From NCBI GenBank assembly GCA_963718525.1, contig OY970355.1:704001-768000 (forward strand): DNA of 64,000 nt. The letters are read 5' to 3'. The translations under genes were made by a program, and so were the position numbers. Shown in pieces: positions 11,124 to 53,489 of the stretch. The notes under the pieces are model-generated. The model was not told where the DNA came from. It saw only the letters and a list, made by a program, of their open reading frames with translations, and did no database searches. This stretch comes from Candidatus Dormiibacterota bacterium. GTDB lineage: Bacteria > Chloroflexota > Dormibacteria > Aeolococcales > Aeolococcaceae. How positions within the stretch are numbered: position 1 is the first letter of the stretch; every line of letters starts with the position of its first letter.

Positions 11124-13572
11124 CTACGCAGGCGGGGTATCGAGCGTCTGAGCGTCGCGCGTCGACTTCGCCTCGGCAGTATTTGCAGCTCGGCCTGCGT
11201 CGGCGACGAGTTCGGAGGATCTCATACGGCATGAGAGGCATCCGATCAACGCGAACACCCAGTGGGGACAGCGCATCTTCAATCGCTTCTGCAATGACAG
11301 CGGACACTGGAATGACGCCTGCTTCGCCCGTACCCTTGACACCCAACGGATTCAGCGGTGACGGCGTTTCAACATGATCGAGAATCACCTCTGGCACGAC
11401 ATCGGCCGTGGGGAGGCGGAAATCCATGAAGTTCGCTGAGAGCGGCTGTCCGTTGGGATCGAAGGCGAGCCTCTCGAGCAGCGCCCCGCCTATCCCCTGA
11501 ACCAAGCCGCCGAGCACCTGGCCCTCGACGATCATTGGATTCACCATGACGCCACAGTCATGCACGAGGACGTATTTGATGAGACGAACATCCCCGGTGC
11601 TAAGGTCGACCTCGATCGTGGCCGCATGGACGCCACTGCCATACAGCTGCTGTCCGGCGCCGAAGAATCCGCGCGCCTGAAACAGAGGAGGCACGCCGAT
11701 GACTTGTCCGGCTCGCAGGCTCAGCCGGTCCATGACGCTCGCGTCGTCAGCAGCAACGCGATCGACGGGGTAGCCGTATGGGTTCGTCAACGCGGCCAGC
11801 CCCGCGAACGATATCCGATTCTCCGGTGATCCGATCACCTGGACACCGCCATTGAGAAACTGCAGGTCAGCGGCCGAACATTCGAAAAGATCAGCGGCGT
11901 AGTCGGCAAGCTGGCGGCGGAGTTCCAGTGCCGCCTGCGCAACCGCGTTGCCCGCAAGAAGCAGCGACCGACTCCCAAAGGTCCCAAGACCAAACTCCAC
12001 TCGGCTGCTGTCACCTCCGCGTACGACCACCTGGTCAAAGGTCGCCCCGAGCGCGTCAGCAGCTATCTGCGCGAGCGATGTGCTGTGACCCTGCCCTTGG
12101 GAGGCTGTGGCCACGTCAAAGACAAACGTCCCTGAATCGGTGAGGCGCGCGGCGCATCCTTCGTATGGTCCGGGCCCAGTGGACTCGACGTACGTTCCCA
12201 TGCCCATGCCGATGAAGCGACCTTGGTTTCGCGCCTCACGCTGTTCAATACGGAAGCTGGTGGGGTCCAGGTGATCGAGTGCCTTTCCGAATGCTGCTGG
12301 GTAGTTGCCGCTGTCATAGCGAACCGGCGCATCAATGTGCAGGCCAACGTCATATGGGAACTCATCGGCCGGGATCAAATTGCGTGCGCGGATGACGTGA
12401 GGTTCAACGCCCAGACGCCGACCAACCGCACAGATGAGCCGCTCCATCACGAAAACCGCGTGCGGGCGGCCAGCGCCTCGATATGGGCTCACCGGCGGTT
12501 TGTTGGTGTAAAGAATGTCACCGTGGACTGAGTAATTGGCGACCTTGTACTGCCCGAGCACATGGGTCGCTGTATTTGCCGGGACTGCTATGCCATAGGG
12601 GATGTATGCGCCGGTGTCATGAATAAAGGAGGTGCGTACCGCAAGAATGGTTCCGTCAGCGTCAAACGCGATCTCCGCGTCATGTATCTGACCGCGCTCC
12701 TGGTTGGCGGCGACGAAGTGCTCCCATCGATCCTCTGCCCACTTCACAGGCAGGCCAAGCTGGCGCGCGGCGAAAGGGACGAGGACTTCCTCTGGGTAGA
12801 ACAGCATGATCTTGGCGCCAAACCCTCCGCCTACATCCGGTGCCACGACCTCCACCTGGTCTTGCGGCAGGCCGAGCAGCCTGCAGAGGCCGTGCTTGAT
12901 GGCGACTGGAGCTTGGGTCGAGTCCCAAACGCGCAGCAACTCGGCCTTCGGATCCCATTCCGCGAGGACACCTCGTGTCTCGATCGGACTCGCACAGGTT
13001 CTCTCGAGCGATAGGTGCAGGCGCTCTACAAAGGGTGCGTTCGCAAATGCTGCTTCCACATCGCCGATTCCATCGTCGATTGCCCCAGCGAGGTTGCCGG
13101 GCACCTCGTCGTGCACGCGGTCGGCGCTCCCTGCGGCAGATACCAGGTCGACGACTGCGCCAAGCGGCTCGTAGTCGACGCGGACCAGCGCCGCCGCATC
13201 TTCGGCGAGATACCGATCATCGGCGACGATCATCGCCACCGCTTCGCCGACGTAACGCACCCGGGAGACCGCGAGCGGCAATTGCGTACGCGGCGAGCTG
13301 AGTGCGGAATTCGGCGAGAGGAGCGGCAGTGGCGAATTGAGCGCTCCGATGTCATGACCGGTCAGGACGAGGTGCACGCCGGGTGCAGCAGTCGCGGCCG
13401 CGACATCGATAGACACTATCCGCGCATTCGCATGTGCGCTCCGGAGGAATGCAGCGTGGAGCGCTCCGTGCAGCTCAATGTCGTCCAAATATCGACCCCG
13501 TCCTCGGAGCAGACGATCATCTTCGCGCCGACGAACGGGTGCGCCGACGTAGCTCGGCGAATCGCTAACCAT
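11124..13572 (-). CDS. Xanthine dehydrogenase family molybdopterin-binding large subunit (CoxL-like); 1-nt frameshift near the 3' end (~11215)
   Basis: RREDDRLLRGRG, VGGGFGAK, PYRGAGR, GQGHST and KGTGEAG; removing one C in ATCCTCCGAACTC restores ILELVAD... ending at the 11124 stop. Confidence 0.9.
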
Positions 13573-34099: not shown

Positions 34100-34727
34100 C
34101 CGGCCGCGGCGGTGTCATGGCACGGCTGCGTGCCCTCCACGGCCTCTCTACCGCACCCAGCTGTACCGACCACTCACCAGCCGAGGCAGAGCTTGTCGCC
34201 TGGGCACTCGAGCTGAGATGCGAGATCCTCGGCTTCGAATCGCTGATCAAGCAGCTCGAAGCGCGTTTGCCACAACTGCTGGCCGAGCGCGGCTCAACAC
34301 TGACCCAGGAGTTCGGGATTGGCGTCGTGTCCGCAGCAGAGTTGGTGGCTCAAGTCGGGGACGCTCGTCGATTTCGCAGCGAGAGCGCGTTCGCCCGCTG
34401 GTGTGGCGTTGCACCGGTCGCCGTCTCGAGTGGCGAAGGCGCAGGGCAGCCTCGTCGACACCGACTCGACCTTCTCGGCAATCGCGCGGTCAACCGGATC
34501 CTCTACACGATGTCGGTGACCCAGGCGAGTCACCACCCACCTGGACGCGAGTTCCTGCAACGCAAGCGGCATGAAGGCAAGTCGTTGAAGGAGGCTCGAC
34601 GAGCTCACAAGCGACTGCTCGCCAACCGTGTCATCCGTCGAATGTGGGCGGACACGCGGAATACGCGCCGAACCACTTCCGTCTGCATAGCCGTGGGCCT
34701 GACTGCTGTCGCTTGACAAAGGAGCCT
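34100..34727 (+). mobile_element. IS110-family transposase 3' fragment and right end
   Basis: GIGVVSAA, FRSESAFA..CGVAP..SSG, RHRL..GNR and A.RA.KR motifs; DEDD N-domain missing; TTGACA at 34713. Confidence 0.85.
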
Positions 34728-35241
34728 CGCAACGTGGCCAGCGCCGTGCCCAAGCTGCACGCGCCGGCGGTGCTCGCGGTCGTGAAGTCGATCTTTCTGC
34801 AGCCAACTCGTGAGACCGCCCGCGACGCCGTGCACCACGCCCTCAGCGTGCTCGAGCCACGCTTTCCGACAGTGGCAGCCAAGCTCCGTGCGGCTGAAGC
34901 CGACGTGCTCGCGTACTTGGACTTTCCGGTCGACCACTGGCGCTCGATCTCCTCGACCAATGCCATCGAGCGGGTCAATGCGGAGCTCGACCGCCGCGCC
35001 AAGGTGGTGGGCATCTTCCCCAACACCGACTCGCTGCTCCGGCTGTTCACCGCAGTGCTCCAGGACCAGCACGACGAGTGGCAGGACGGACGCCGTCACT
35101 TCAGTCAGCAGTCGATGGCTCGCGTAATGCACCCCGACGGCCCGCCGCTGCTCACCAATCCGCTCACGGAGGGACTTGTCGCGTAGCTCACCGACGTTGC
35201 GAGAACTCCACCGAATTCACACCACTACCGGGGACTTGACC
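34728..35241 (+). mobile_element. IS256-family 3' fragment with right terminal repeat
   Basis: Near-identical to the 3' part of the 37795-39191 element; ends ...GGGACTTGACC. Confidence 0.92.
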
Positions 35242-37794: not shown

Positions 37795-39191
37795 GGTCAA
37801 GTCCCGGGTAGTGGTGTGAATTCGGTGGAGTTCTCACAACGTCGGTGAACTAAGCGACAAGGCCCTCCGTGAGCGGGTTGGTGAGCAACGGCGGACCGTC
37901 GGGGTGGAGCAGGCGAGCCATCGACTGCTGACTGAAATGTCGGCGACCGTCCTGCCACTCGTCGTGCTGGTCCTGGAGCACGGCGGTGAACAGGCGCAAC
38001 AGGGAGTCGGTGTTGGGAAAGATGCCCACCACCTTGGCGCGGCGGTCGAGCTCGGCATTGACCCGCTCGATGGCGTTGGTCGAGGAGATCGAGCGCCAGT
38101 GGTCGACCGGGAAATCCAGGTAGGCGAGCACATCGGCCTCAGCCGCACGCAGCTTGGCTGCCACCGCGGGAAAGCGTGGCTCCAACACGGTGAGCGCATG
38201 CCCCACCGCGTCGCGGGCGGTCTCGCGCGTCGGCTGCAGGAAGATCGACTTGACCACCGCCAGCACCGCCGGCGCGTGGAGCTTGGGGACCGCGCTGGCC
38301 ACGTTGCGCAGAAAGTGCACCTTGCAGCGCTGCCACGTCGCCCCAGTGAACACCTGCGACAGCGCACTGCGCAGCCCTTCGTGGGCGTCGGAGATGACCA
38401 GCTGCACGCCGCTCAGTCCGCGTCGCGACAGGCTGCGGCAGAACTCCAGCCAGAACGCCTCGCTCTCGCTGGCGCCGACCGCAAGCCCGAGCACGCTCTT
38501 CTCGCCGCTGTCGCGCACACCCACGGCCACCACCGCCGCTTGGCTCACGATGCGCGCACCCTGACGCACCTTCTCGTAGGTCGCGTCGAACCAGACGTAC
38601 GGGTACGGCTCATCGAGGGGCCGCTCCCGGAACTCGGCGAGCTCCTCGTCGAGCAGCGCGCAGATCCGGCTCACCTCGCTGCGACTGATGCTGCAGCCAC
38701 CCAAGGCGGCCATGAGGTCGTCGACCTTGCGCGTGCTGATGCCGAGCACGTAGGCCTCTTGGACGACCGCCAGCAGCGCGCGATCGATACGTCGCCGAGG
38801 CTCGAGCAGCGACGGGAAGAAGCTGCCAGAGCGCAGCTTGGGGATCTGCAGCTCGAGGCGTCCCGAGCCGGTGTCGAGAACCCGCTCTCGGTAGCCGTTG
38901 CGGTACGTGGTGCGTGTCGATGCTCGCTCGTGTGGGCCGGCGCCGATCTGCGTGGCCGCCTCGGCTTCGATGAGCCGCTGCATGGCGTGTTCGAGGACAC
39001 GTCGCAACACGTCCGTGTCCGCGCCCTGAAGTTGACCGATCAGCGCCTGGTGCGTCATCCTGTTCTGGGCCATCGTGGGTCTCCTGGTTTGGGTTAGAGC
39101 TTCCAAGAGAACTCCGCGGTGGCCTACTTTGTCTACCTCGTCGGCAGCCCTGAGGTCACCCCGGATTTACACCACAATAAGGGACATCACT
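37795..39191 (-). mobile_element. Complete IS256-family element with 8-bp target-site duplication
   Basis: Imperfect terminal IRs GGTCAAGTCCC.../AGTGATGTCCC...; TGCCAAAA at 37787-37794 and 39192-39199. Confidence 0.95.
37850..39073 (-). CDS. IS256-family (mutator) transposase
   Basis: RNGYR, IPKLR.GSFFP, FDA, ISDAHEGL, WQRCKVHF and TNAIER motifs. Confidence 0.96.
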   Translation of the reverse strand: MAQNRMTHQALIGQLQGADTDVLRRVLEHAMQRLIEAEAATQIGAGPHERASTRTTYRNGYRERVLDTGSGRLELQIPKLRSGSFFPSLLEPRRRIDRALLAVVQEAYVLGISTRKVDDLMAALGGCSISRSEVSRICALLDEELAEFRERPLDEPYPYVWFDATYEKVRQGARIVSQAAVVAVGVRDSGEKSVLGLAVGASESEAFWLEFCRSLSRRGLSGVQLVISDAHEGLRSALSQVFTGATWQRCKVHFLRNVASAVPKLHAPAVLAVVKSIFLQPTRETARDAVGHALTVLEPRFPAVAAKLRAAEADVLAYLDFPVDHWRSISSTNAIERVNAELDRRAKVVGIFPNTDSLLRLFTAVLQDQHDEWQDGRRHFSQQSMARLLHPDGPPLLTNPLTEGLVA

Positions 39192-39710: not shown

Positions 39711-39785
39711 TGGCTGGGGAGGGAGGATTCGAACCTCCGATTGGCTGATCCAGAATCAGCTGCCTTACCACTTGGCCACTCCCCA
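39711..39785 (-). tRNA. tRNA-Gln (anticodon CTG)
   Basis: TGGGGAG acceptor stem, GCTGA-TTCTGGA-TCAGC anticodon arm, GGTTCGAATCC T-arm, encoded CCA. Confidence 0.97.
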
Positions 39786-43367: not shown

Positions 43368-44261
43368 ATGGCCCATCCCCTCGCCGAATATCGCGTCGAT
43401 ACGGCGCGCCTGACGCTCTCGGTGCGAGACCACGCCGGTGGCGAGCCGTCCATCCTCGCGCTCCACGGCCTGGCGAGCAATGCGCGCTGGTGGGATCTCG
43501 TCGCGGAGGATCTCGTTCCCGCATATCGGGTGATCTCGGTGGACCTGCCGGGTCATGGCAAGAGCGATCGGCCGGACTCGGGCTACGACTTCGACACGGT
43601 GTCGAGCGACCTCGAGGGACTGCTTGCGGCGATCCGCCACCCTGAGCCGGTGGTGGTGGTCGGGCACAGCTGGGGCGCGACGGTCGCCCTCGCGTTCGCC
43701 GCGAACCACCCGGAGTTGGCGCTCGGCGTCGTCTGCATCGATGGCGGCGCCGGCGACCTCAAGGCGTACTTCGGCCCGAGCTGGGAGATGGCCGAGCAGA
43801 CCATGCGCCCGCCGGCGCTGAAGGGCGTGACCCCGGCGATGCTGCGCGCGTGGATGGACTCGTCGCCGCTGCGCGACGGGTCTGACCCGGACACTGCGGC
43901 CGCGATCCTGATGGGCAACTTCGAGGACGACGGCACCGGCGCCGGCACCCTCCGCCCGCGCCTCTCGCTCGAGCACCACATGGAGATTGCCCACCACCTC
44001 TTCGACGCCAATGGGTTCGAGCTGATGGCGAAGGTGCGCTGTCCGATGCTCTTCATTCCCGCCGGTCATCCCGACCACGAGGACTCGCCGAAGGTGCGGT
44101 CGATCGAGCGAGCCAGGGAGGTGGTGGGCGATCGCGCACGCTTCGTGTGGATCGACGGAGTGCACGACCTCCCGGTGCAGCGGCCGAAGCAGGTCGCGCA
44201 GGCGATCGCGGCATTCGTCGACGAGCTGGTGGCTCAGCCGAGCAGCACGTCCCAGAAGTAG
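43368..44261 (+). CDS. Alpha/beta hydrolase
   Basis: LHGL, DLPGHG.S, GHSWG nucleophile elbow, GVHD. Confidence 0.9.
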   Translation: MAHPLAEYRVDTARLTLSVRDHAGGEPSILALHGLASNARWWDLVAEDLVPAYRVISVDLPGHGKSDRPDSGYDFDTVSSDLEGLLAAIRHPEPVVVVGHSWGATVALAFAANHPELALGVVCIDGGAGDLKAYFGPSWEMAEQTMRPPALKGVTPAMLRAWMDSSPLRDGSDPDTAAAILMGNFEDDGTGAGTLRPRLSLEHHMEIAHHLFDANGFELMAKVRCPMLFIPAGHPDHEDSPKVRSIERAREVVGDRARFVWIDGVHDLPVQRPKQVAQAIAAFVDELVAQPSSTSQK

Positions 44262-45760
44262 CGCTCGCTCCGGGGCACGCCCTGATCGACGTGGATGTGC
44301 TTCACCTCGGTGTACTCGAGCAGGCCCGCTCGTCCGTGCTCGCGACCGATGCCGCTCTGCTTGTAACCCCCGAACGGCGCGAGCGGGTTGAGCAGGTGCC
44401 AGTCGTTGATCCAGACCGTCCCGGTACGCAGCTGTTTGGCGATCTCGATGGCGCCGCGCGTGTCGCGCGACCACACGCCGCCCGCGAGTCCGTAGATCGT
44501 CCGGTTGGCGCGCTGGATCACCTCGCCGAGGTCGCTCCAGCGCTGCACCGCGAGGACCGGTCCGAAGATCTCTTCGGTGCCGGCGTGCGAGTCGGGCGAC
44601 ACATTGGTGAGCACGGTTGGCTGGATGAAGAAGCCGCGGTCGCCGACGTTGGGCGCTCGCCCGCCGCCGCAGGCGACGGTCGCTCCCTCCTGCTTCGCCC
44701 GCTCGATCGCGGCCAAGATCATGTCGTACTGAGCGCGGTTGATCACCGGGCCGACCTGGGTGTCGAAGTCGGCCGCGTCACCCACACGCAGCGACGCCGC
44801 TCCGTCGACGAGACGGTCGACAAAGGTGTCGTAGATGTCGTCGTGGACGAAGAGGCGGGTGCCCGATTCGCACATCTGACCCTGATGGAAGAAGGTGCCG
44901 AAGAGCGCGCCATCGACCGCGATATCGAGGTCCGCATCCGGGCAGACGATGTTCGCGGACTTGCCGCCGAGCTCGAGCGTCACCTTCTTTATGGTGGGTG
45001 CGGCAGCTGCGAGGATCTTGCGGCCGGTGGCGGTGGATCCTGTGAAGGCCACCTTGTCCACGTCTGGGTTCTCGACGAGCTCGATGCCCGCGTCAACGCT
45101 GTCCCCGGTGACGACGTTGAGCACGCCTTTGGGGAGCAGGCCCGTTTCGTCGATGGCGCGAGCGACCGCCAGTGCGGACAGCGGCGTCTGCGGCGCCGGC
45201 TTCAGGACGATCGAGTTGCCCATGGCGAGCGCCGGCGCGATCTTCCACATCGCGAAGATCAACGGGTAGTTCCACGGGATGATCCCGGCGCACACGCCCA
45301 CCGGCTCGCGCTGCACGAAGTTCCAGGAGACGTAGGGGGAATCGATCCAGGGCAGCGGCTCGTACCAGGGCACGCCAAGCGCCTGCTCGGCCATGCTCCG
45401 GAACCACTCGATGGCGAGGGGCACATCGACCACAGAGGTCTTGCGCAGCGCAGCGCCGGCATTCTGCGATTCGAGCAGCCCCCAGTCGTCCGAGACCTCC
45501 TGGAGGTGCTCGACGATCTGGAACATGATCTGGGTGCGCTGCAACTGCGACTTGAGGCGCCAGTCCCCGGCTTCGAAGGAGCGGCGTGCGGCAGCGACGG
45601 CCCGGCGGGCGTCGGCCCGCGTGCTCGCCGGCGCGACGGCCATGACCTCTTCGGTGGACGGGTTGATGACGTCATAGGTGTGTCCGTCCTCGGCTCCGAC
45701 CCACTCACCGTCGATGTACTGCTGATACGTCGTCACCTCGGGCTCGACGACCGCTGTCAC
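44234..45760 (-). CDS. Aldehyde dehydrogenase
   Basis: PWNYP, FTGST, LELGGKS, GQMC and EEIFGP motifs. Confidence 0.96.
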   Translation of the reverse strand: MTAVVEPEVTTYQQYIDGEWVGAEDGHTYDVINPSTEEVMAVAPASTRADARRAVAAARRSFEAGDWRLKSQLQRTQIMFQIVEHLQEVSDDWGLLESQNAGAALRKTSVVDVPLAIEWFRSMAEQALGVPWYEPLPWIDSPYVSWNFVQREPVGVCAGIIPWNYPLIFAMWKIAPALAMGNSIVLKPAPQTPLSALAVARAIDETGLLPKGVLNVVTGDSVDAGIELVENPDVDKVAFTGSTATGRKILAAAAPTIKKVTLELGGKSANIVCPDADLDIAVDGALFGTFFHQGQMCESGTRLFVHDDIYDTFVDRLVDGAASLRVGDAADFDTQVGPVINRAQYDMILAAIERAKQEGATVACGGGRAPNVGDRGFFIQPTVLTNVSPDSHAGTEEIFGPVLAVQRWSDLGEVIQRANRTIYGLAGGVWSRDTRGAIEIAKQLRTGTVWINDWHLLNPLAPFGGYKQSGIGREHGRAGLLEYTEVKHIHVDQGVPRSERYFWDVLLG

Positions 45761-45943
45761 TGACCACCTCCACCGCCCTGGGCCGCTGTTGACACCGGTG
45801 TCGATTATGCGGCGGGAGCTTGAGCGCTCTCATCGTGCCCCTCGCCTGACGACAGCCGTGGCGGTGCGCATTTGTCCGCGCCGCTGCGGCTACCATACCC
45901 TACGATACTGTCATTCTGCGAGCGCATACAGTGGAGTGGCGGC

Positions 45944-47110
45944 ATGGATCAGATCGAGTTCGCCGACGGCTTCGACAGACCAGACACGATCGCGTTCGGG
46001 CTCGGCGCCGGGCAGGTCGCCGTGGTCATGGCCTGCGCGCTTGCCGCGTATTCGCTGGTGCGCTCGCCGCTGCCGCCCGCGTTTGTCGACCCGATCGCCG
46101 GATTGCTCGTGGTTGCGGCGGCTGCGCTCGGGTGGCTGAGAGTCGAGGGGCGGCCGGCGCTCGACTGGGCGATCTTCGCCGGACGTTTCTGGATGCGTCC
46201 GCGCCGGGGGATGACCCGGTGGGAGCTCGCGACCACCACCCCGGGTGACGACGCCCAGCCTGCGCCGGGCACCGCTGCACAAGGGGCTGTCATTGAGCTC
46301 TTCGCTGCGCGCGGCACGCCTCCCGCGAGCGACCCGGGAACGCCGCCCGTGCTTCGCCCCATCAGCCGGGGGAGTGGCGCGCGACGGGTGACCTTCTTCT
46401 CCCTGCGAGGCGGCACCGGGCGCAGCACGCTGGCCACCGAACTCGCGTGCCTGCTCGCCGCCAGCCATAGCGAACAGCGCGCGGCTCCTCGGGTGGCACT
46501 CGTCGATCTCGACCTGCGCAGTCCGAGCGTGGCAGTCCGCCTCGGTACGCCGGAGCAGACGCTGCTCGACTACGCGCTCGCCCCGCCCGAAGAGAGACGA
46601 GTCGTCGACTTCATGGCCACCCACTCGTCCGGCGTCCGCCTGCTGCTCGGTCCACAGCGCCCCGTGAATCCCGAGTGGCCGGTGACGCCGGCGCTCCTCC
46701 GCGAGGTGCTTCGCGAGCTGGACATGGAGGCGTTCGACCTCGTGGTTCTGGACGTGTCGCCAGAGCTGTCACCACTGAACACCACGGCGATCTGCGCGTG
46801 CGATGACGTGTTCGTGGTGGTCGTGCCCACAGCGGGCGGTGTGCAGGATGCGTATCGGAGCACGGCGGCACTTCGCGGCCTCGGGCTGCGCCATCAGCTC
46901 CGCTACGTCGTCAATCGATCCAGGCCCGAGACGGACCTGAGTGAGCCGATGGCCGACCTCGGCGGTCAGGTGATTGGCGATATTCCGGACGACGAGTCGG
47001 TGGTCACCGCAGAGAATGCGCATCGACTCGTGACCCTCGACGAGTCGGCTCCTGCGGCGATCGCCCTCCGCCGACTCGCGCGCAGGGTCGGGAGCGAGCT
47101 GCACGCCTAG
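45944..47110 (+). CDS. PrgI (VirB3-like) membrane domain fused to MinD/CpaE-like P-loop domain
   Basis: N-terminal DRPDTIAFGL..GQ plus two TM helices; FFSLRGGTGRSTLA, LVDLDL, VVLD and VVNR motifs. Confidence 0.7.
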   Translation: MDQIEFADGFDRPDTIAFGLGAGQVAVVMACALAAYSLVRSPLPPAFVDPIAGLLVVAAAALGWLRVEGRPALDWAIFAGRFWMRPRRGMTRWELATTTPGDDAQPAPGTAAQGAVIELFAARGTPPASDPGTPPVLRPISRGSGARRVTFFSLRGGTGRSTLATELACLLAASHSEQRAAPRVALVDLDLRSPSVAVRLGTPEQTLLDYALAPPEERRVVDFMATHSSGVRLLLGPQRPVNPEWPVTPALLREVLRELDMEAFDLVVLDVSPELSPLNTTAICACDDVFVVVVPTAGGVQDAYRSTAALRGLGLRHQLRYVVNRSRPETDLSEPMADLGGQVIGDIPDDESVVTAENAHRLVTLDESAPAAIALRRLARRVGSELHA

Positions 47111-49305
47111 TGGCCGGACTCAGCATCCGGGGCTGGCGGCCATCGGCGGCACCGGGACTCGCTGCGAAGATCGAGATCCGCGGAGACCATTGCGAGTACA
47201 CCGGGCGGGTTTCCGCAGTGCTCGCGACCAGCGAGTTGGACATCGATGCGCTGGATCCCGCGCGCAAGGCGGCTGCATCGGCGTCGTTCGCGCGCCTCTG
47301 CCACACGTTGCAGACCCCGATGCAGCTGCTCGTCCGCGTCCGGCTCCTCGACGCACCAGACGAACCGATCGCTGATGGCCCTCATGCCCATCTCGATGAC
47401 GCGATGCACCGGCACTGGACTGAACAGATCCTCGACGGCAACCGGCACACCCGTCAGGTCCTGGTCGCGCTGAGTGCCTCGACGCCATCGGCGCTTGACG
47501 CGGCGTGTGCGCACGCGAGCGATCGCCTCGGAGCGCTCGGCGTCATCGCGACGCGCCTCCAGGACGGCCCGCTGATGGACGCGCTCACCGCCGGCCTCGA
47601 GACGAAGTGCGATTGGTACGAGTATCCGAAACACGTCGCGATCGGCGGGATGCTGGTGCGCGGTCATGCGCTTCGGCGTCTTCCCGGCCACGCGGTGGGG
47701 GCGGGCTGGCTGGCACCGCTGCTCAGCGTGCAGACCGAGTGCGACATCGCGATCCACGTGGTGCCGGCACCCCTCGGCGAAGCCCTCGGCCGCCTGAGCA
47801 GGCGACTGCGTGATCTCTCCGCACATCGCATGCTCGAGGTCGAGCGAGGCGCGCTCGGTGACGTGCACGTCGACATCGGTTTCAACTCGGCAACCGCACT
47901 CCGCGAGAGGCTGGCACGCAACCAGGGACGTCCGCTCCATCTCTCAGTCGTGGCAACGGTTCGCGGCGATTCCCTCGACAGCGTGCACGCCCGTGGCGAG
48001 ACGTTGCGCGTGGCATTCGCGTCGTCGCTCATCGGCGTCGAGGCAACGCACTTCCGCCACATGGCCGCGCTGGTCAGCACGCTCCCACTCGGCGTCGAAG
48101 CGCTGAGCGCCGGCAAGCTCGTCGACTCTGCGGCCGCGGCCACGTGCATCCCGTGGGTCGAGACAGGATGCTCGGATCCAGGCGGATACCGGCTCGGCGC
48201 GGCGATCACCTCCGGACTTCCGGTCAAGGTCGCGCCGTTCGACACCACGCGCCATCCCAACCCGAACATCGCCGTCTTCGCAGCCTCAGGCCACGGCAAG
48301 AGCTTCGCGATCGGCACGCTCGTGCTCGAAGCCGCGGTCACAGGCGTGAACTCGGTGATCATCGATCCCGAGGGCGAGTACCGCGGCCTGGTCCGCGCGC
48401 TCGGCGGGCGCTACCTCGAGCTCGCGCCCGGCACCGGCGCCGCAGTCAACGTGTTCGAAGGCGCCGGCAATGATCCCGAAGCGGCGATTGCCGCGGTGGT
48501 TGACCTCGTCACCGTGCTGTGCGGCGATCAACTCGGCGAGGTGGAGCGCGCCGTCATCGACGCCGCAGCGCGGGCGGGTCTCGAGCGTGCGGCGGGCGAC
48601 CACCGCGTCCCGCTCCTCGAGGACTGCATTCCCACGCTCGATGTCGACGCGCGCCCCGTTGCCGCTGTGGTCCGGCGCTTCTGCACCGGAGGCCTCGGTG
48701 CCCTCTTCAACCGTCCCACGTCGCTCGCCGTCGATTCCGGCGTGTGCGCCATCTCGCTGCGAGACATGCCGCCCGAGCATGTTGCGGCCGCGACGCTCAT
48801 CGTCGCGCGTTGGTTGTGGGAGCTGGTGCAGCGCGACCGGCGGCGCCGTCATATCGTGTTCGACGAGGTTGGCGCGCTCTGCGTGCACCGCCCCCTGCGC
48901 GACCTGCTCGTGCAGCTCGCGCGACGCTGCCGCAAGTACAGCGCATCGCTGGTGGTGGCGACGCAGAACGCGCAGGACCTGCTCGGCACCGATGAGGGCA
49001 GCGTGATCGCGACCAATTGCGCAGTGGTCCTCCTGGGTGGTCATCGAGCGGCGGAAACCGCGCGAATGGAACGTGCGTTCGGCCTCACCGAGGCGCAGCG
49101 AGGCTTCCTCGAGACCGCATCTCGCGGCGAGTTCCTGCTCCTCGCGGGCGATCGGCGCGTTGCCATGCGCATCGAGGTTCCGGAGGTACACCGGTCCATA
49201 CTCAATGGCGAATTCGCGGCGCAGTACCCCCTTGACGGCAGCCCTCCCGACTCGCAAGATATGGGGGCTCCCGGACGGCTGAGCCCCAAGATATGGGATC
49301 ATTAA
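47110..49305 (+). CDS. VirB4/TraE-like HerA-FtsK superfamily ATPase
   Basis: NPNIAVFAASGHGKS, IIDPEGEY, IVFDEV, RCRKY...ATQ and RGEFLL motifs. Confidence 0.85.
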   Translation: MAGLSIRGWRPSAAPGLAAKIEIRGDHCEYTGRVSAVLATSELDIDALDPARKAAASASFARLCHTLQTPMQLLVRVRLLDAPDEPIADGPHAHLDDAMHRHWTEQILDGNRHTRQVLVALSASTPSALDAACAHASDRLGALGVIATRLQDGPLMDALTAGLETKCDWYEYPKHVAIGGMLVRGHALRRLPGHAVGAGWLAPLLSVQTECDIAIHVVPAPLGEALGRLSRRLRDLSAHRMLEVERGALGDVHVDIGFNSATALRERLARNQGRPLHLSVVATVRGDSLDSVHARGETLRVAFASSLIGVEATHFRHMAALVSTLPLGVEALSAGKLVDSAAAATCIPWVETGCSDPGGYRLGAAITSGLPVKVAPFDTTRHPNPNIAVFAASGHGKSFAIGTLVLEAAVTGVNSVIIDPEGEYRGLVRALGGRYLELAPGTGAAVNVFEGAGNDPEAAIAAVVDLVTVLCGDQLGEVERAVIDAAARAGLERAAGDHRVPLLEDCIPTLDVDARPVAAVVRRFCTGGLGALFNRPTSLAVDSGVCAISLRDMPPEHVAAATLIVARWLWELVQRDRRRRHIVFDEVGALCVHRPLRDLLVQLARRCRKYSASLVVATQNAQDLLGTDEGSVIATNCAVVLLGGHRAAETARMERAFGLTEAQRGFLETASRGEFLLLAGDRRVAMRIEVPEVHRSILNGEFAAQYPLDGSPPDSQDMGAPGRLSPKIWDH
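49232..49299 (+). promoter_or_regulatory. nrdJ promoter with tandem NrdR boxes
   Basis: CAAGATATGGG cores at 49255 and 49287 (32-bp spacing); TTGACG at 49232 with CAAGAT 17 nt later. Confidence 0.75.
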
Positions 49306-49406
49306 CGTGATCTCACCACTGGAGATAGGGGCTCGAGGTCGCCAGGGCGCGGTCCTGCACACGTCTCTGCACAATGAAGCGCCCACCAGCTAGAAGAGGA
49401 AAGACC

Positions 49407-52400
49407 GTGGATCGATCCGCCTCCAAACCCGTCCCAGACAACTCGCACAGCATCTCGATGGAGCCCCCGTCGGGACGCAGATCGGGTCGTAGAAACGGGA
49501 CCGCGCAGGCGCGCGTCAGCGCCAAGGTGGAGGTCGAGGGCGGCGGGATTCACGTCGAGCGGCGCTTCACCAAAGAGGGTGTGCATCCCTTCGACGAGGT
49601 GACCTGGGAACAGCGCACCGCGGCCATCGGCAACGAGAAGGGCGAGACCGTCTTCGAGCAGAAGGATTGCGAGATCCCGACGTTCTGGTCACAGATGGCC
49701 ACAAACGTGGTGGTCAGCAAGTACTTCCGCGGCAAGCTCGGAACGCCCGGTCGCGAGACCAGTGTCAAGCAGATGATCTCGCGCGTTGCCGAAGCCATCG
49801 GTAAGTTCGGCAGGGCAGGCGGGTATTTCGCCACCGAGACCGACGCCCAGGCATTCCAGGACGAGCTCACCCACCTGTTGCTCCACCAGAAGATGGCCTT
49901 CAACAGCCCGGTGTGGTTCAACCTCGGCGTCTCCACGAGCAAGCCGCAGATCAGTGCGTGTCAGCCGTATGACGCACGAGTCGCGACACCCAATGGCATG
50001 ATCCCCATCGGAGAGCTCGTCGATCGCGATGCCATCGGCGAGGAAGTCTTTGATCGGAATGGCGTGACGCGGATCGTAGCGACCAAGGCGAACGGCCGGA
50101 AGGAAGTCTTCAGGTTGACCATCGGATCGGGGGTCACGGTGGACGCAACCGCAGACCACGTCATCCTGGTTGCCGATGACCGAAAGGGGCTTCGGACATC
50201 TTGGAAGCGCGTCGGCGAGGTGAGGCCCGGGGATCGCCTGGTTCTCGATGCAAGTAGGACCGTGATGCGTCCCGCGGAAGTCTCCGTCATGGAGCTTGCT
50301 GGCCTTGGCGCGCCTCGTCCCTATGCAGGACGCGGTCGGCGGTTCCAGCAGCAGGGCGATGTCGAGAGCTGGATCGAGACAGCAGCCACTGAACCGCATC
50401 TGATTGCGGTTGCGGAAGCGTCCCTCGCCGGCTGGCTGCAGGGCGATGGTTACGTTGGGATCCCAGCTGGCTGCACATCACTCGTCATCGAACTGCAGCC
50501 TGCGGACGCAGAGGAATTGGCGGATGTCGAGAGGCTCCTCGATATCGTCTTTCCTGGCGTCCATCGTCATGTCACACGCTCCGACGCGGCTGGAGATCGG
50601 GGCTGCTACAGGGTGCGGCTGTCCGGCGAAGTCCTCGTTCCGTTTGTGAACAAGTGGGAATTGACCACCCGTGGCGCCGAGATGCACGTTCCCAGCTGCC
50701 TGTGGAGCTCATCGACGGATGAGATCGCCGGGTACGTGCGCAGTCTCTTCCAGGCAGATGGCTACGTGAGCATCCAGGCTAGAACAGCCGATCGCGCATG
50801 GCCGCGAGCCGCCGTCGGTCTTGGCACTGTTTCCTATCAGCTCGCGGCGGACGTCCAGCAGTTGCTGCTGACCCTCGGTGTCCAATCGACGGTCAGGACT
50901 GAGCCGGCGCACGGCGTCCGGCAAGCGTTCAACACAGTCACCATCGGCACACGCCCGGACCGGCTGCTCTTCGAAGAGCTCGTCGGCTTCCCCTGTGCTC
51001 GCAAGGCCTCCTTGCTGAAGGCGTCACTCGAGATCGGTGTCGATAACACCCCAAGGCATCAGATCCGATTCCCGCGCGTCGCCGCGATCGCGTCACGCGG
51101 CGTCATGGACGTCTACGACATCCAGACGGAAAGCGGCAACTACCTGAGCAATCACGTCGTCGTGCACAACTGCTTCATCAACAGCGTTGACGACACCATG
51201 GAGTCGATCCTCACGCTCGCCAAGACCGAGGGCATGCTCTTCAAGTACGGCAGCGGCACGGGGACCAACCTCTCCAGCATCCGTTCGTCGACCGAGTCGC
51301 TCGCCGGCGGCGGCACCGCCAGCGGGCCTGTGTCCTTCATGAAGGGCTTCGACGCCTTCGCCGGGGTCATCAAGAGCGGTGGCACGACGCGCCGCGCCGC
51401 CAAGATGGTGATCCTCAATGCCGACCATCCCGACATCGAGGAGTTCATCACCTGCAAGGTGAGCGAGGAGCGCAAGGCGTGGGCGCTCATCGAGGCCGGA
51501 TACGACAGCTCCTTCACCGGCGAGGCGTACGCGTCGGTCTTCTTCCAGAACAGCAACAACTCGGTCCGCGTGACCGACGAGTTCATGCGCGCGGTGCAGG
51601 ACGATCGCGACTGGCATCTCCACGCGGTCACCAACTCCAGCCGGATCCTCAAGACCGTGAAGGCCCGCGAGCTGATGCGGCTCATCGCCGAGTCGGCGTG
51701 GCAGTGCGGCGACCCCGGCATGCAGTACGACACCACCATCAACGACTGGCACACGTCCGCGGCAACGGGTCGCATCAACGCCAGCAATCCGTGCAGCGAG
51801 TTCATGTTCCTCGATGACACCAGCTGCAACCTAGCGTCGATCAATCTCACCCGGTTCCTCAACGACGACGGTTCGATCGACATCGAGGCCTACAAGCACG
51901 CGATCCACATCACGATCACCGCGCAGGAGATCCTGGTCAGCAACGCCTCGTATCCCACGGAGAAGATCGCCAGAAACAGCGAGGAGTTCCGTCCGCTCGG
52001 TCTCGGCTATGCCAATCTCGGCGCCCTGCTCATGGCGCGCGGCGTTCCGTACAACTCCCCGCAGGGTCGTGACCTGGCCGCGTGCCTCACCTCGATCCTC
52101 ACCGGCGAGGCGTACGCGCAATCGGCTCGCATCGCACGCGAGATCGGACCCTTCAGCGGCTACGCCGTCAACCGCCAGCCGATGCTGCGCGTGGTCGGCA
52201 AGCACCGTGAGGCCGCGTACAACATCCCGACCGACAACATCGAGCCCGACCTCGTCGGCGCGGCGCGCCATGCATGGGACGAGGCCCACGAGCTTGGCGC
52301 GCGTTACGGCTATCGCAACTCGCAGGCCACCGTGCTCGCACCCACCGGGACGATCAGCTTCATGCTCGACTGCGACACCACCGGCGTCGAGCCGGACATC

Positions 52401-53489
52401 GCGCTGGTCAAGTACAAGAAGCTCGTCGGCGGCGGCATGCTGAAGATGGTCAACGGCACCGTACCTGCCGCGCTTCGCAGGCTCGGCTATGGCGAGACCG
52501 CCATCGGTGACATCGTGGCGTTCATCGACGCCAACGACACCATCGAAGGAGCACCGACGCTTCGCGACGAGGATATCGCGGTCTTCGACTGCGCCTTCAC
52601 GCCGCAGAACGGCAAGCGCTCGATCACGTGGCAGGGCCACCTCCGCATGATGGCCGCGGTGCAGCCGTTCATCAGCGGCGCGATCTCCAAGACGGTGAAC
52701 ATGCCCAACGAGGCGACCGTCGAGGACATCGAACGTGCGTACACCGACGGCTGGAAGCTCGGCCTCAAGGCGGTCGCGATCTACCGCGATGGCAGCAAGC
52801 GCAGCCAACCGCTGGCAACCAGCATCGACAAGACCACGGGGCATCGCGTCCAGATCGTCGAGCGTCCGCTGCGCAAGCGACTGCCCGCCGAGCGCACCGC
52901 GATCACGCACAAGTTCGAGGTCGGCGGCCACGAGGGATACATCACCGTCGGCCTCTACGAGGACGGCACACCGGGAGAGATCTTCCTGCGCATGGCCAAG
53001 GAGGGTTCCACGGTCAGCGGACTGATGGACTCGTTTGCGACAGCGGTCTCGCTCGCGCTGCAGTACGGCGTTCCCCTGCCGGCGCTCGTCGACAAGTTCT
53101 CGCACACCCGCTTCGATCCGCAGGGATTCACGCGCAACCCGGAGATCCCCATCGCCAAGTCGGTGATGGACTACATCTTCCGGTGGCTCGCCTCCCGCTT
53201 CCTGCCCCAGGAGGAGCGCGATCGCCTCGGCATCATCCGCCGCGAACCCGACGGCAGCGTCACGGAACCCGTGTCAGCCGCCGAGGCCGCAATCGAGGCC
53301 ATGGCACCAGTGACGGTTGCTCCTGTCGCTGCAGCGCGCAAGCTCACCACCGCGATTCCCCTGACGAGCGCAGGCGCATTCATCAACCAGGAAGACGCAC
53401 CCACATGCAGCGACTGCGGCAGCCTCATGGTGCGCAACGGCGCCTGCTACAAGTGCCACAACTGCGGAGCGACGAGCGGCTGCAGCTGA
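49407..53489 (+). CDS. nrdJ: Class II (B12-dependent) ribonucleotide reductase with intein, TSCPD domain and C-terminal Zn ribbon
   Basis: FNSPVWFN, SA|CFI, GGTTRRAAKM, SNPCSE, SCNLAS, APTGT and C..C...C..CG..SGCS motifs. Confidence 0.97.
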   Translation: MDRSASKPVPDNSHSISMEPPSGRRSGRRNGTAQARVSAKVEVEGGGIHVERRFTKEGVHPFDEVTWEQRTAAIGNEKGETVFEQKDCEIPTFWSQMATNVVVSKYFRGKLGTPGRETSVKQMISRVAEAIGKFGRAGGYFATETDAQAFQDELTHLLLHQKMAFNSPVWFNLGVSTSKPQISACQPYDARVATPNGMIPIGELVDRDAIGEEVFDRNGVTRIVATKANGRKEVFRLTIGSGVTVDATADHVILVADDRKGLRTSWKRVGEVRPGDRLVLDASRTVMRPAEVSVMELAGLGAPRPYAGRGRRFQQQGDVESWIETAATEPHLIAVAEASLAGWLQGDGYVGIPAGCTSLVIELQPADAEELADVERLLDIVFPGVHRHVTRSDAAGDRGCYRVRLSGEVLVPFVNKWELTTRGAEMHVPSCLWSSSTDEIAGYVRSLFQADGYVSIQARTADRAWPRAAVGLGTVSYQLAADVQQLLLTLGVQSTVRTEPAHGVRQAFNTVTIGTRPDRLLFEELVGFPCARKASLLKASLEIGVDNTPRHQIRFPRVAAIASRGVMDVYDIQTESGNYLSNHVVVHNCFINSVDDTMESILTLAKTEGMLFKYGSGTGTNLSSIRSSTESLAGGGTASGPVSFMKGFDAFAGVIKSGGTTRRAAKMVILNADHPDIEEFITCKVSEERKAWALIEAGYDSSFTGEAYASVFFQNSNNSVRVTDEFMRAVQDDRDWHLHAVTNSSRILKTVKARELMRLIAESAWQCGDPGMQYDTTINDWHTSAATGRINASNPCSEFMFLDDTSCNLASINLTRFLNDDGSIDIEAYKHAIHITITAQEILVSNASYPTEKIARNSEEFRPLGLGYANLGALLMARGVPYNSPQGRDLAACLTSILTGEAYAQSARIAREIGPFSGYAVNRQPMLRVVGKHREAAYNIPTDNIEPDLVGAARHAWDEAHELGARYGYRNSQATVLAPTGTISFMLDCDTTGVEPDIALVKYKKLVGGGMLKMVNGTVPAALRRLGYGETAIGDIVAFIDANDTIEGAPTLRDEDIAVFDCAFTPQNGKRSITWQGHLRMMAAVQPFISGAISKTVNMPNEATVEDIERAYTDGWKLGLKAVAIYRDGSKRSQPLATSIDKTTGHRVQIVERPLRKRLPAERTAITHKFEVGGHEGYITVGLYEDGTPGEIFLRMAKEGSTVSGLMDSFATAVSLALQYGVPLPALVDKFSHTRFDPQGFTRNPEIPIAKSVMDYIFRWLASRFLPQEERDRLGIIRREPDGSVTEPVSAAEAAIEAMAPVTVAPVAAARKLTTAIPLTSAGAFINQEDAPTCSDCGSLMVRNGACYKCHNCGATSGCS
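49959..51170 (+). mobile_element. 404-aa intein with LAGLIDADG homing endonuclease
   Basis: Starts CQPYD, block B ATADH, LAGWLQGDG and SLFQADG motifs, ends VYDIQT...VVHN|C. Confidence 0.95.

Follow-up and report, generated by a model that had tools for sequence, protein, structure and literature searches.

A VirB3-like/TadZ-like fusion protein and a VirB4-family ATPase in Dormibacteria, probably the end genes of a reduced Tad operon

Why would a bacterial chromosome keep, between an aldehyde dehydrogenase gene and a ribonucleotide reductase gene, two overlapping genes that resemble the membrane anchor and the motor of a type IV secretion system (T4SS)? The question is raised by a stretch of 64,000 nucleotides (the window) of contig OY970355.1 (assembly GCA_963718525.1, positions 704,001 to 768,000 of the forward strand) from a member of the Dormibacteria, which are abundant, uncultured soil bacteria. 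The two genes, both on the plus strand, are open reading frame (ORF) 1 (45944..47110; 388 amino acids), whose product is a PrgI/VirB3-like membrane domain fused to a MinD/ParA-fold ATPase in the position of TadZ, and ORF2 (47110..49305; 731 amino acids), whose product is an ATPase of the VirB4 family that has both the N- and the C-terminal domain. An earlier note, made from the letters alone, had taken the pair for an orphan T4SS whose other parts are encoded elsewhere. The pair is indeed real, chromosomal and vertically inherited; its conserved partners in relatives, however, are Tad/Flp pilus genes, and not VirB6, VirD4 or a relaxase. The reading that we favor, and consider probable, is that the pair represents the end genes of a chromosomal, vertically inherited Tad-VirB4 operon of the Dormibacteria, from which the inner Tad genes have been lost, leaving an adaptor-plus-motor module.

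The first half of ORF1 could be assigned only by way of its relatives. Over residues 12-87 the PrgI model PF12666 matches with an expectation value (E) of 8e-4 and 20.3 bits, not reaching its cut-off of 27, and the N-terminus of the NCBIfam model SCO6880_fam matches residues 15-122 at E 8e-8, also below cut-off. When an alignment of ORF1 N-termini is compared by hhalign with a small standalone PrgI protein of another family of the class (f3, below), the probability is 97.9% (E 5.8e-13), and this protein (locus L064) itself scores 36.8 bits with PF12666, above threshold; against a plasmid PrgI the corresponding values are 78% and E 1.9e-5. At the level of sequence comparison, the PrgI assignment is secured through these orthologs, the window's own protein being sub-threshold. 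An AlphaFold2 (AF2) model built on 15 homologs, with an overall predicted local distance difference test score (pLDDT) of 80, places helices at residues 22-39 and 45-64 in a hairpin and a third helix at 72-84 (pLDDT 86-91 over residues 21-80, and 88-91 in the hairpin helices), such that residues 1-95 (45944..46228, plus strand) are predicted to hold two transmembrane helices in the manner of PrgI/VirB3, the family to which the earlier note had assigned the N-terminus. A six-frame search of the whole genome with a profile of this domain matched ORF1 only.

Residues 96-142 of ORF1 (46229..46369, plus strand) form an apparently disordered linker of variable length: the pLDDT is below 50 over residues 90-141, the length differs by well over 100 residues among the 15 homologs, and the ratio of nonsynonymous to synonymous substitution rates (dN/dS) is the highest of the three ORF1 segments. 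The remainder (residues 143-388; 46370..47107, plus strand) has a MinD/ParA fold, with ParA/CbiA/AAA_31 matches above Pfam cut-offs at residues 148-362 and target-normalised Foldseek TM scores of 0.78-0.83 against FlhG, FleN and MinD (0.79 for FlhG 4rz3, 0.83 for MinD 1hyq). Its Walker A sequence, FFSLRGGTGRS, is atypical. Whereas MinD proper carries KGGxGK[ST] with a signature lysine, the window has RGGTGRS, and the pattern across 15 homologs is xGGxG[RK][ST], with the position of the MinD signature lysine variable and the P-loop lysine replaced by arginine in 11 and retained in four. Models for MinD (about 53-55 bits against cut-offs of 200 or more), BcsQ, the KGGVGR variant and CpaE (TIGR03815, CpaE_hom_Actino, 38.4 bits against 154) all remain below cut-off. 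Because none of these family models is decisive, the assignment of this ATPase as TadZ rests on the position of its gene in relatives.

ORF2 is, judged from its sequence, a divergent member of the VirB4 family. Its best model is NF045971 (CD1110-type VirB4; E 7e-50, 170.1 bits against a cut-off of 325), and TIGR00929 gives 70.3 bits against 643, so that with both hidden Markov models (HMMs) it stays below the curated cut-off. A profile of 16 ORF2 homologs searched against the PDB finds the C-terminal domain of Thermoanaerobacter VirB4 (4ag5) at E 5.9e-52 and TrwK at E 6.5e-14. The AF2 model (pLDDT 87.6; predicted TM score, pTM, 0.84) aligns by Foldseek with the full-length R388 TrwK/VirB4 (8rtd_O) over 769 alignment columns at a query-normalised TM score (TMq) of 0.70 and E 7.6e-30, HerA being well behind at TMq 0.36. 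The model, the structural alignment and the PDB profile together show the two-domain, N- plus C-terminal architecture and the fold of VirB4. The Walker A motif (S393-G394-x-G396-K397; 48286..48300, plus strand) is invariant in all 16 homologs, which come from five families, as is the Walker B motif (D585-E586; 48862..48867, plus strand). A PrgI/VirB3-type gene directly 5' of a VirB4 gene, as is expected of this family, is supplied by the PrgI-like N-terminus of ORF1.

The identity of the system to which these genes belong emerges from their arrangement in relatives. The window's genus is here called g1 and its family f1, the other families of the class being f2, f3, f4 and f46. At a locus of f2 (L054), the order is ORF1 homolog, TadA (as two ORFs), TadB, TadC, a TadE/Tad-like gene, a PKD protein, RcpC/CpaB and VirB4 homolog. 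The same order, with the Tad set bracketed by ORF1 and ORF2 homologs, recurs within the window's own family in genus g100 (L050), and tblastn places a Tad set between the two homologs in L048 and L058; in all four of these loci, and in L056, the ORF1 homolog is followed by tadA as is usual at the head of a tad operon, whereas ORF2 follows it in the window. In one genome of f4 (G110), the set is divided between two loci, one with the ORF1 homolog, TadA, TadB and TadC, the other with TadE, Tad, RcpC and the VirB4 homolog. Because homologs of ORF1 and ORF2 bracket the tad set in these relatives, what had been described as a MinD/CpaE half is better regarded as the TadZ-position gene of a Tad operon, its MinD/ParA fold standing as described.

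The spacing of the two homologs, which we compared by hand from their listed places, differs among genera and families. They are adjacent in 26 genomes of g1, in 35 further f1 genomes (genera g2, g5, g99, g102, g103, g105, g106, g107 and g108) and in four f46 genomes, where two genera have the compact form; they lie about 5-6 kb apart in seven f1 genomes (g3, g100, g101 and g113); in f2 the distance is about 6-7 kb in each of the 17 genomes that have both on one contig; and in f4 they are on different contigs in each of the 10 genomes for which both places are listed. Across f1, f2 and f4 the embedded genes are 62-67% (TadA), 43-46% (TadC) and 38-43% (RcpC) identical, and TadB is 49% identical between f2 and f4, as against 39-45% (TadA) and 26-28% (TadC) between the embedded set and the canonical Tad genes of the window's genome. 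The embedded genes of the three families are thus mutual orthologs and clearly distinct from the canonical set. In the window's genome, tblastn recovered canonical paralogs only and no set of the embedded type; from this absence we conclude that the window carries a reduced operon, whose first gene now adjoins its last. In all of the relatives that have conserved machine genes next to the ORF2 homolog, these are Tad genes and not VirB6, VirB8 or VirD4. The embedded TadA of L054 (10732-12040) is in two ORFs of 274 and 154 amino acids that match consecutive parts of the T2SSE model.

Family f3 presents a further arrangement: in all four loci examined, a small standalone PrgI-like ORF lies directly 5' of the VirB4 homolog, and embedded Tad genes are absent. 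Two of these loci, those without an integrase beside the pair (see below), share with the f4 locus a downstream Hydrolase_4 gene.

Is the pair a resident of the chromosome or a fragment of something mobile? In a sample of 301 genomes of the class (tallies that include genomes flagged as unpublished), proteins of the ORF1 type occur in 125: all 28 genomes of g1, in each of which the homolog is full-length, 78 of 84 in f1, 11 of 11 in f4, 24 of 43 in f2, 4 of 39 in f46 and, as weak matches, 7 of 123 in f3. The ORF2 type is broader (262 of 301), and is found in 28 of 28 genomes of g1, 77 of 84 of f1, 37 of 39 of f46, 28 of 43 of f2, 108 of 123 of f3 and 11 of 11 of f4. A phylum-wide sample gave ORF1 matches at E 1e-20 in 9 of 151 genomes, all within the class, and close homologs bear the source names Candidatus Dormibacteria, Dormibacteraeota or Dormiibacterota. 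When 1.84 billion representatives were searched with a profile of the ORF1 N-terminus, 822 proteins matched at E 1e-3. The ORF1-type ATPase domain is also present in 76 of the 150 best matches, many of the others being short, and of 10 clusters looked up, the three with names are all Dormibacteria. ESM Atlas neighbours of ORF1 are likewise Dormiibacterota clusters, one with PrgI in 44% and CbiA in 90% of its members. A search of 72,556 plasmid records gave no match to ORF1 at E 1e-5. One homolog (P0050), 72% identical to ORF1, carries the source label Candidatus Saccharimonadales, probably a binning or labelling error.

Synteny and phylogeny indicate vertical inheritance, for which the earlier note had proposed a test. 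The upstream block of thioesterase, holin-X, otsA, hydrolase and aldehyde dehydrogenase genes is conserved within the genus; otsA and the aldehyde dehydrogenase gene are kept upstream in genera g1, g106 and g5. On the downstream side, nrdJ is kept in g1, g106, g102, g105 and g5. A VirB4 tree is concordant with the family labels, f3 being monophyletic with support of 100/100. When this tree is rooted with the second VirB4 of the window's genome, the end branch of the outgroup is 5.47 long and the backbone is unresolved, because of which we make no claim for the order in which the Tad set was gained or lost. Relative to the closest relative (dS 0.3-0.4), dN/dS is 0.09 for ORF1 and 0.034 for the aldehyde dehydrogenase, and for ORF2, over its first 499 codons, it is 0.195; relative to other members of the genus it is 0.11-0.19, with dS near saturation. 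Both genes are under purifying selection, with dN/dS of about 0.09-0.2. Their composition is host-like, as had been noted: the G+C content of third codon positions is 0.81 in each, against 0.83-0.89 in the flanking genes. Among the ORFs scanned at 34.6-62.4 kb of the window there is no relaxase, VirD4 or other coupling protein, VirB6 or integrase, and no att-like direct repeats flanking the pair were found, which bears out the earlier description. The locus thus lacks the relaxase, coupling protein, integrase and att repeats of a conjugative element, and its flanks are syntenic in relatives: the pair is chromosomal and vertically inherited, and is not part of an integrative and conjugative element.

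One alternative is a domesticated T4SS of the classical kind, in which the pair would be the energising core and the channel, coupling protein and relaxase would be encoded elsewhere. A candidate for these other parts exists at 339-354 kb of the genome (G000:C1:339046-353399; loci L061, L062 and L003), where a VirD4/TraG gene (339046-340815) is accompanied, on the minus strand, by a VirB11/T2SSE-like ATPase (345643-347046), a second VirB4 of 876 amino acids (349225-351852) and a TrbL/VirB6-like protein with a weak match (351849-353399). This VirB4 occurs in 8 of 9 genomes of the genus that were sampled, and the nearest plasmid relatives of ORF2 itself, at about 30% identity (from Embleya, Streptomyces and Chlorohelix), lie in ordinary, bona fide conjugation loci that contain TrbL-like (by Pfam), PrgI, XF1762, VirB4, type IV coupling protein (T4CP), replication-relaxation and NlpC/P60 proteins. 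But the cluster has a VirB4 of its own, which is 25-29% identical to ORF2, and its distribution in the class is patchy (20 of 151 genomes: 16 of 33 in f1, 3 of 48 in f3, and none of 15 in f46, 43 in f2 or 11 in f4), as against the nearly class-wide distribution of the ORF2 type; for both reasons it is unlikely to be an obligate partner of ORF2. Add to this that the conserved machine neighbours of ORF2 in relatives are Tad genes, and a domesticated classical T4SS seems to us an unlikely explanation.

The resemblance to the T4SS of monoderm bacteria (MPF-FATA type, with PrgI/VirB3 and a CD1110/PrgJ-type VirB4) is nevertheless extensive, in that a small two-helix PrgI-like domain lies directly 5' of, and is coupled to, a two-domain VirB4, for which the CD1110 family is the best HMM and the TrwK/VirB4 fold extends over the full length, with plasmid relatives in conjugation loci. 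The differences are that the PrgI domain is here fused to a MinD/ParA-fold ATPase, that the window's locus has no VirB6, VirB8, VirD4, relaxase or cell-wall hydrolase, and that the pair resides on the chromosome, is syntenic and occurs nearly throughout the class, with HMM scores below curated cut-offs. The nearest plasmid neighbours of VirB4 also lack the MinD fusion: the Embleya PrgI (349 amino acids) is PrgI only, and the protein upstream in Chlorohelix has no Pfam match. A chromosomal T4SS present across a lineage is known from the Patescibacteria, in which VirB3 anchors VirB4 and no VirB3-VirB4 fusions were found, according to the sections of PMC12102498 on these proteins; unlike the Dormibacteria pair, those loci add VirB6, VirB8, TrsD and VirB2-like genes, and Tad genes are not mentioned in the same sections (PMC12102498).

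An alternative of a different sort is that the pair is simply a decaying, functionless remnant of the deleted operon. The inner operon genes are gone; dN/dS is several-fold above that of neighbouring housekeeping genes; and in four genomes of the genus (G207, G302, G326 and G300) the ORF2 homolog is split into two frames near residues 335-340, the break in locus L045 (G207; 11880-11893) being a difference of +1 nt relative to the window. Such breaks, all at the same place, could reflect decay, an inherited fission of the gene into separate N- and C-terminal domain proteins, or a recurrent assembly error. They are the only real frame changes among the ORF2 homologs. Other homologs with apparent internal stops had been candidates for pseudogenes, and this was rejected in those that were checked (L049, L052, L057 and L058), where true stops were read through at the variable C-terminal tail. 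Against decay stand the presence of both genes in all 28 genomes of the genus that were sampled, the constraint on both (dN/dS 0.09-0.2), the invariance of the ATPase motifs, the retention of tight coupling between the genes, and the persistence of the compact form in many f1 genera and two f46 genera. We therefore consider it very improbable that the pair is functionless.

The coupling is as the earlier note had described it. The stop codon of ORF1 and the start codon of ORF2 overlap in the sequence TAGTG (47108..47112, plus strand), and a GGAG ribosome-binding site read from the sequence (45933..45936, plus strand) precedes the ATG of ORF1 by 7 nt; the AGTGGAGTGGCGG-ATG context is also present in two relatives of the genus. 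Among relatives of the compact type, the two genes are separated by gaps or overlaps of 6-25 nt with the chosen starts. The value of -217 nt at L055 probably comes from a misassigned start.

If the pair is indeed what remains of a Tad-VirB4 operon, its mode of action may be sketched as follows. In relatives, the full operon reads prgI::tadZ - tadA - tadB - tadC - tadE-like genes - rcpC/cpaB - virB4, and in the window's genus deletion of the inner Tad genes would have left the first and last genes translationally coupled. The VirB3-like hairpin of ORF1 would lie in the cytoplasmic membrane with both ends on the cytoplasmic side, where the linker and ATPase would also be, and, in the role that VirB3 plays in a T4SS, would recruit a VirB4 hexamer. 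Because the Walker A of the TadZ-like ATPase is degenerate, this domain is less likely to be a motor than a scaffold that depends on nucleotide, through which the VirB4 motor might be linked to a Tad-type platform. Because the pair survives without embedded Tad genes here and, as PrgI plus VirB4, in f3, we take adaptor and motor to be the functional unit; in the genus the pair probably still acts as such, perhaps by using, in trans, the canonical Tad machine encoded at 3.05-3.07 Mb. The cargo might be pilins or, by analogy with Ced/Ups and PAPI-1-like hybrids, DNA. The pair may serve DNA transfer, as the earlier note had suggested, a claim on which none of our tool results bears.

ORF1 shares with TadZ/CpaE of Tad (type IVc) pili a MinD/FleN-like fold, an atypical Walker A and, in relatives, its place as first gene of a tadA-tadB-tadC-tadE-rcpC operon; TadZ is described as an ATPase with an atypical Walker A that serves as a hub in recruiting Tad components (in the part of PMC6668835 that deals with it). 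Unlike TadZ/CpaE, ORF1 has no receiver-like N-terminal domain, its place being taken by the PrgI/VirB3 hairpin and linker, and in the window no Tad gene follows it. The canonical Tad/Flp region of the same genome (G000:C1:3047776-3074140; loci L059 and L060) encodes two TadA, TadE, a SAF-domain protein (RcpC/CpaB-like), TadB, TadC, a Flp pilin and three CpaE-like paralogs, which do keep the receiver (Response_reg plus ParA) and two of which are divergently arranged.

Pilins as cargo raise the question of whether the pair serves pilus biogenesis alone, with VirB4 acting on Flp/Tad pilins as a motor of the pilin-extracting or the retraction type and no macromolecular cargo being moved. VirB4 is required in the assembly of conjugative pili and acts on VirB2 pilins, and we know of no separate retraction ATPase in Tad systems. 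In relatives, moreover, the Tad operon ends with rcpC and then VirB4, and the Tad-containing loci that were scanned showed neither a relaxase nor a T4CP nor a single-strand-binding gene. It counts against this restriction to pilus assembly that the canonical Tad region has two TadA ATPases of its own, and that f3 (in 4 of 4 loci) and the window's genus keep the pair without embedded Tad genes, because of which the pair seems to be valuable independently of the embedded pilus set. We judge a role in pilus biogenesis alone to be improbable.

Several observations weigh against the operon reading itself. Because the window's locus has no Tad gene (TadA, TadB/C, pilins and pseudopilins were looked for), the link to a pilus in this genus is indirect. 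Neither protein of the window reaches the curated HMM cut-offs for PrgI, VirB4 or CpaE, and the frame breaks in ORF2 homologs of four genus members belong here as well. A search for sequencing runs listed 14 holders from 10 studies, none of them of RNA. One genome of f4 (G053, locus L053) has an ORF1 homolog of 391 amino acids, and its 14-kb contig piece gave no embedded-type Tad match. The f3 PrgI-VirB4 pair has a phage-type integrase as its neighbour at two of the four loci, one of these integrases being a fragment (L064 13303-13872; L067 11496-12629). As to the polarity of events, the Tad set may have come in between prgI and virB4, or f3 may have lost it. Lastly, the complex prediction that the earlier note had suggested gave weak support for the operon reading: ORF1 residues 1-96 with ORF2 residues 1-370 scored 0.49, the best of three controls scoring 0.26, with at least 65% of contacts in agreement between runs and a partner pLDDT of at least 69. 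Of the solved complexes, 116 of 157 reach the mark that this score passes, as do 2 of 215 mismatched pairs; at 0.60 or under, however, just 18 of the 157 solved complexes reach it, together with both of the mismatches. Because VirB3-VirB4 complexes have already been solved, the pass may reflect likeness to them, and we treat the prediction as a hint.

What the fusion might accomplish is a more speculative matter. It is conceivable, though we think it less likely than not, that VirB3::TadZ works as an adaptor by which a VirB4 motor is physically docked on a Tad-pilus platform, in a chromosomally inherited, pilus-coupled transport of DNA or protein across the envelope that would be a bacterial counterpart of the archaeal Ups/Ced system. 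Partnerships of this general kind have precedents. VirB4/VirD4 working with a type IV pilus in PAPI-1 is a proposed chimeric translocation route, one of the 'hybrid assemblies' discussed in part of PMC12857230. In the chimeric systems of the PAPI-1 island and IncI plasmids, and in archaeal Ups pili with the Ced importer, a VirB4-family ATPase is genetically joined with a type IV-filament machine, as it is here; Ups/Ced are the subject of PMC11868833 and PMC9905601. Those chimeric systems differ in being archaeal or carried by mobile elements of diderms, in using other pilus classes, in including a T4CP and in having no VirB3-TadZ fusion, whereas the full form in the Dormibacteria is one vertically inherited operon of a monoderm-related lineage, of which two genes are present in the window. 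Closer in cell type are the linear plasmids of Cutibacterium acnes, where Tad genes and a VirB4-family ATPase are likewise neighbours in a monoderm: a tad locus stands beside VirB4/TcpC/FtsK genes, and the linkage of Flp pili to conjugation is left open in the relevant part of PMC5696575, which also cites Tad-dependent transformation in Micrococcus luteus. Those loci are plasmid-borne and separate, with other conjugation genes and, as far as that part of PMC5696575 describes them, no fusion protein. The Dormibacteria module is a new variant among the known chimeric systems of VirB4 and type IV pili, and its defining piece is the VirB3::TadZ fusion. This fits the earlier statement that the fusion is not known from described conjugation systems: in the full-text literature (a coverage outside which subscription journals and closed supplements fall), we found no description of a PrgI/VirB3-TadZ fusion or of VirB3 and VirB4 genes standing on either side of a Tad gene set.

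The interest of such a protein lies in the junction itself. Hybrids in which a VirB4-type motor works with a type IV pilus are known from a few mobile elements and from archaea, but we know of no account of how the two machines are joined in them, and a single polypeptide that unites the anchor of VirB4 (VirB3) with the organiser of Tad (TadZ) would be a concrete and testable point of coupling. Within one lineage there is also a natural series (standalone PrgI plus VirB4, full Tad operon, split operon and two-gene remnant) from which the interdependence of the parts can be read. The value of the window within this series is that adaptor and motor persist together under selection after loss of the pilus genes; if the docking proposal is true, the Tad-less pair would show that adaptor and motor can be retained by themselves and redirected, in trans, to the other Tad machine of the cell. 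More broadly, a chromosomal VirB4 module found across the class suggests a conserved function in envelope transport or exchange.

As to the surroundings of the pair, the 5' neighbour of ORF1 is the aldehyde dehydrogenase gene, on the opposite strand (44234-45760; Pfam E 2e-163), and the 3' neighbour of ORF2 is nrdJ (49374-53489), which encodes a class II ribonucleotide reductase with an intein. The nearest tRNA gene, for tRNA-Gln, is at 39711-39785, and two ORFs of Mutator-family transposases, one a fragment (34644-35186) and one full (37850-39106), also lie 5' of the pair. The tRNA gene and the transposases are 6-11 kb upstream, past genes that are syntenic in relatives. An island origin of the pair, which such features might bring to mind, is rejected on account of this separation and of the lack of att-like repeats.

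The intein of nrdJ has a LAGLIDADG domain and spans roughly residues 197-599. A genus relative (L045) has an nrdJ without this intein; in L047 and L049 an intein-like sequence stands elsewhere, near residue 807; and L051 has a gap near residue 807, where an insert was not detected. Because L045 is without it and L047 and L049 have an intein-like sequence at a different site, the intein content of nrdJ differs among members of the family.

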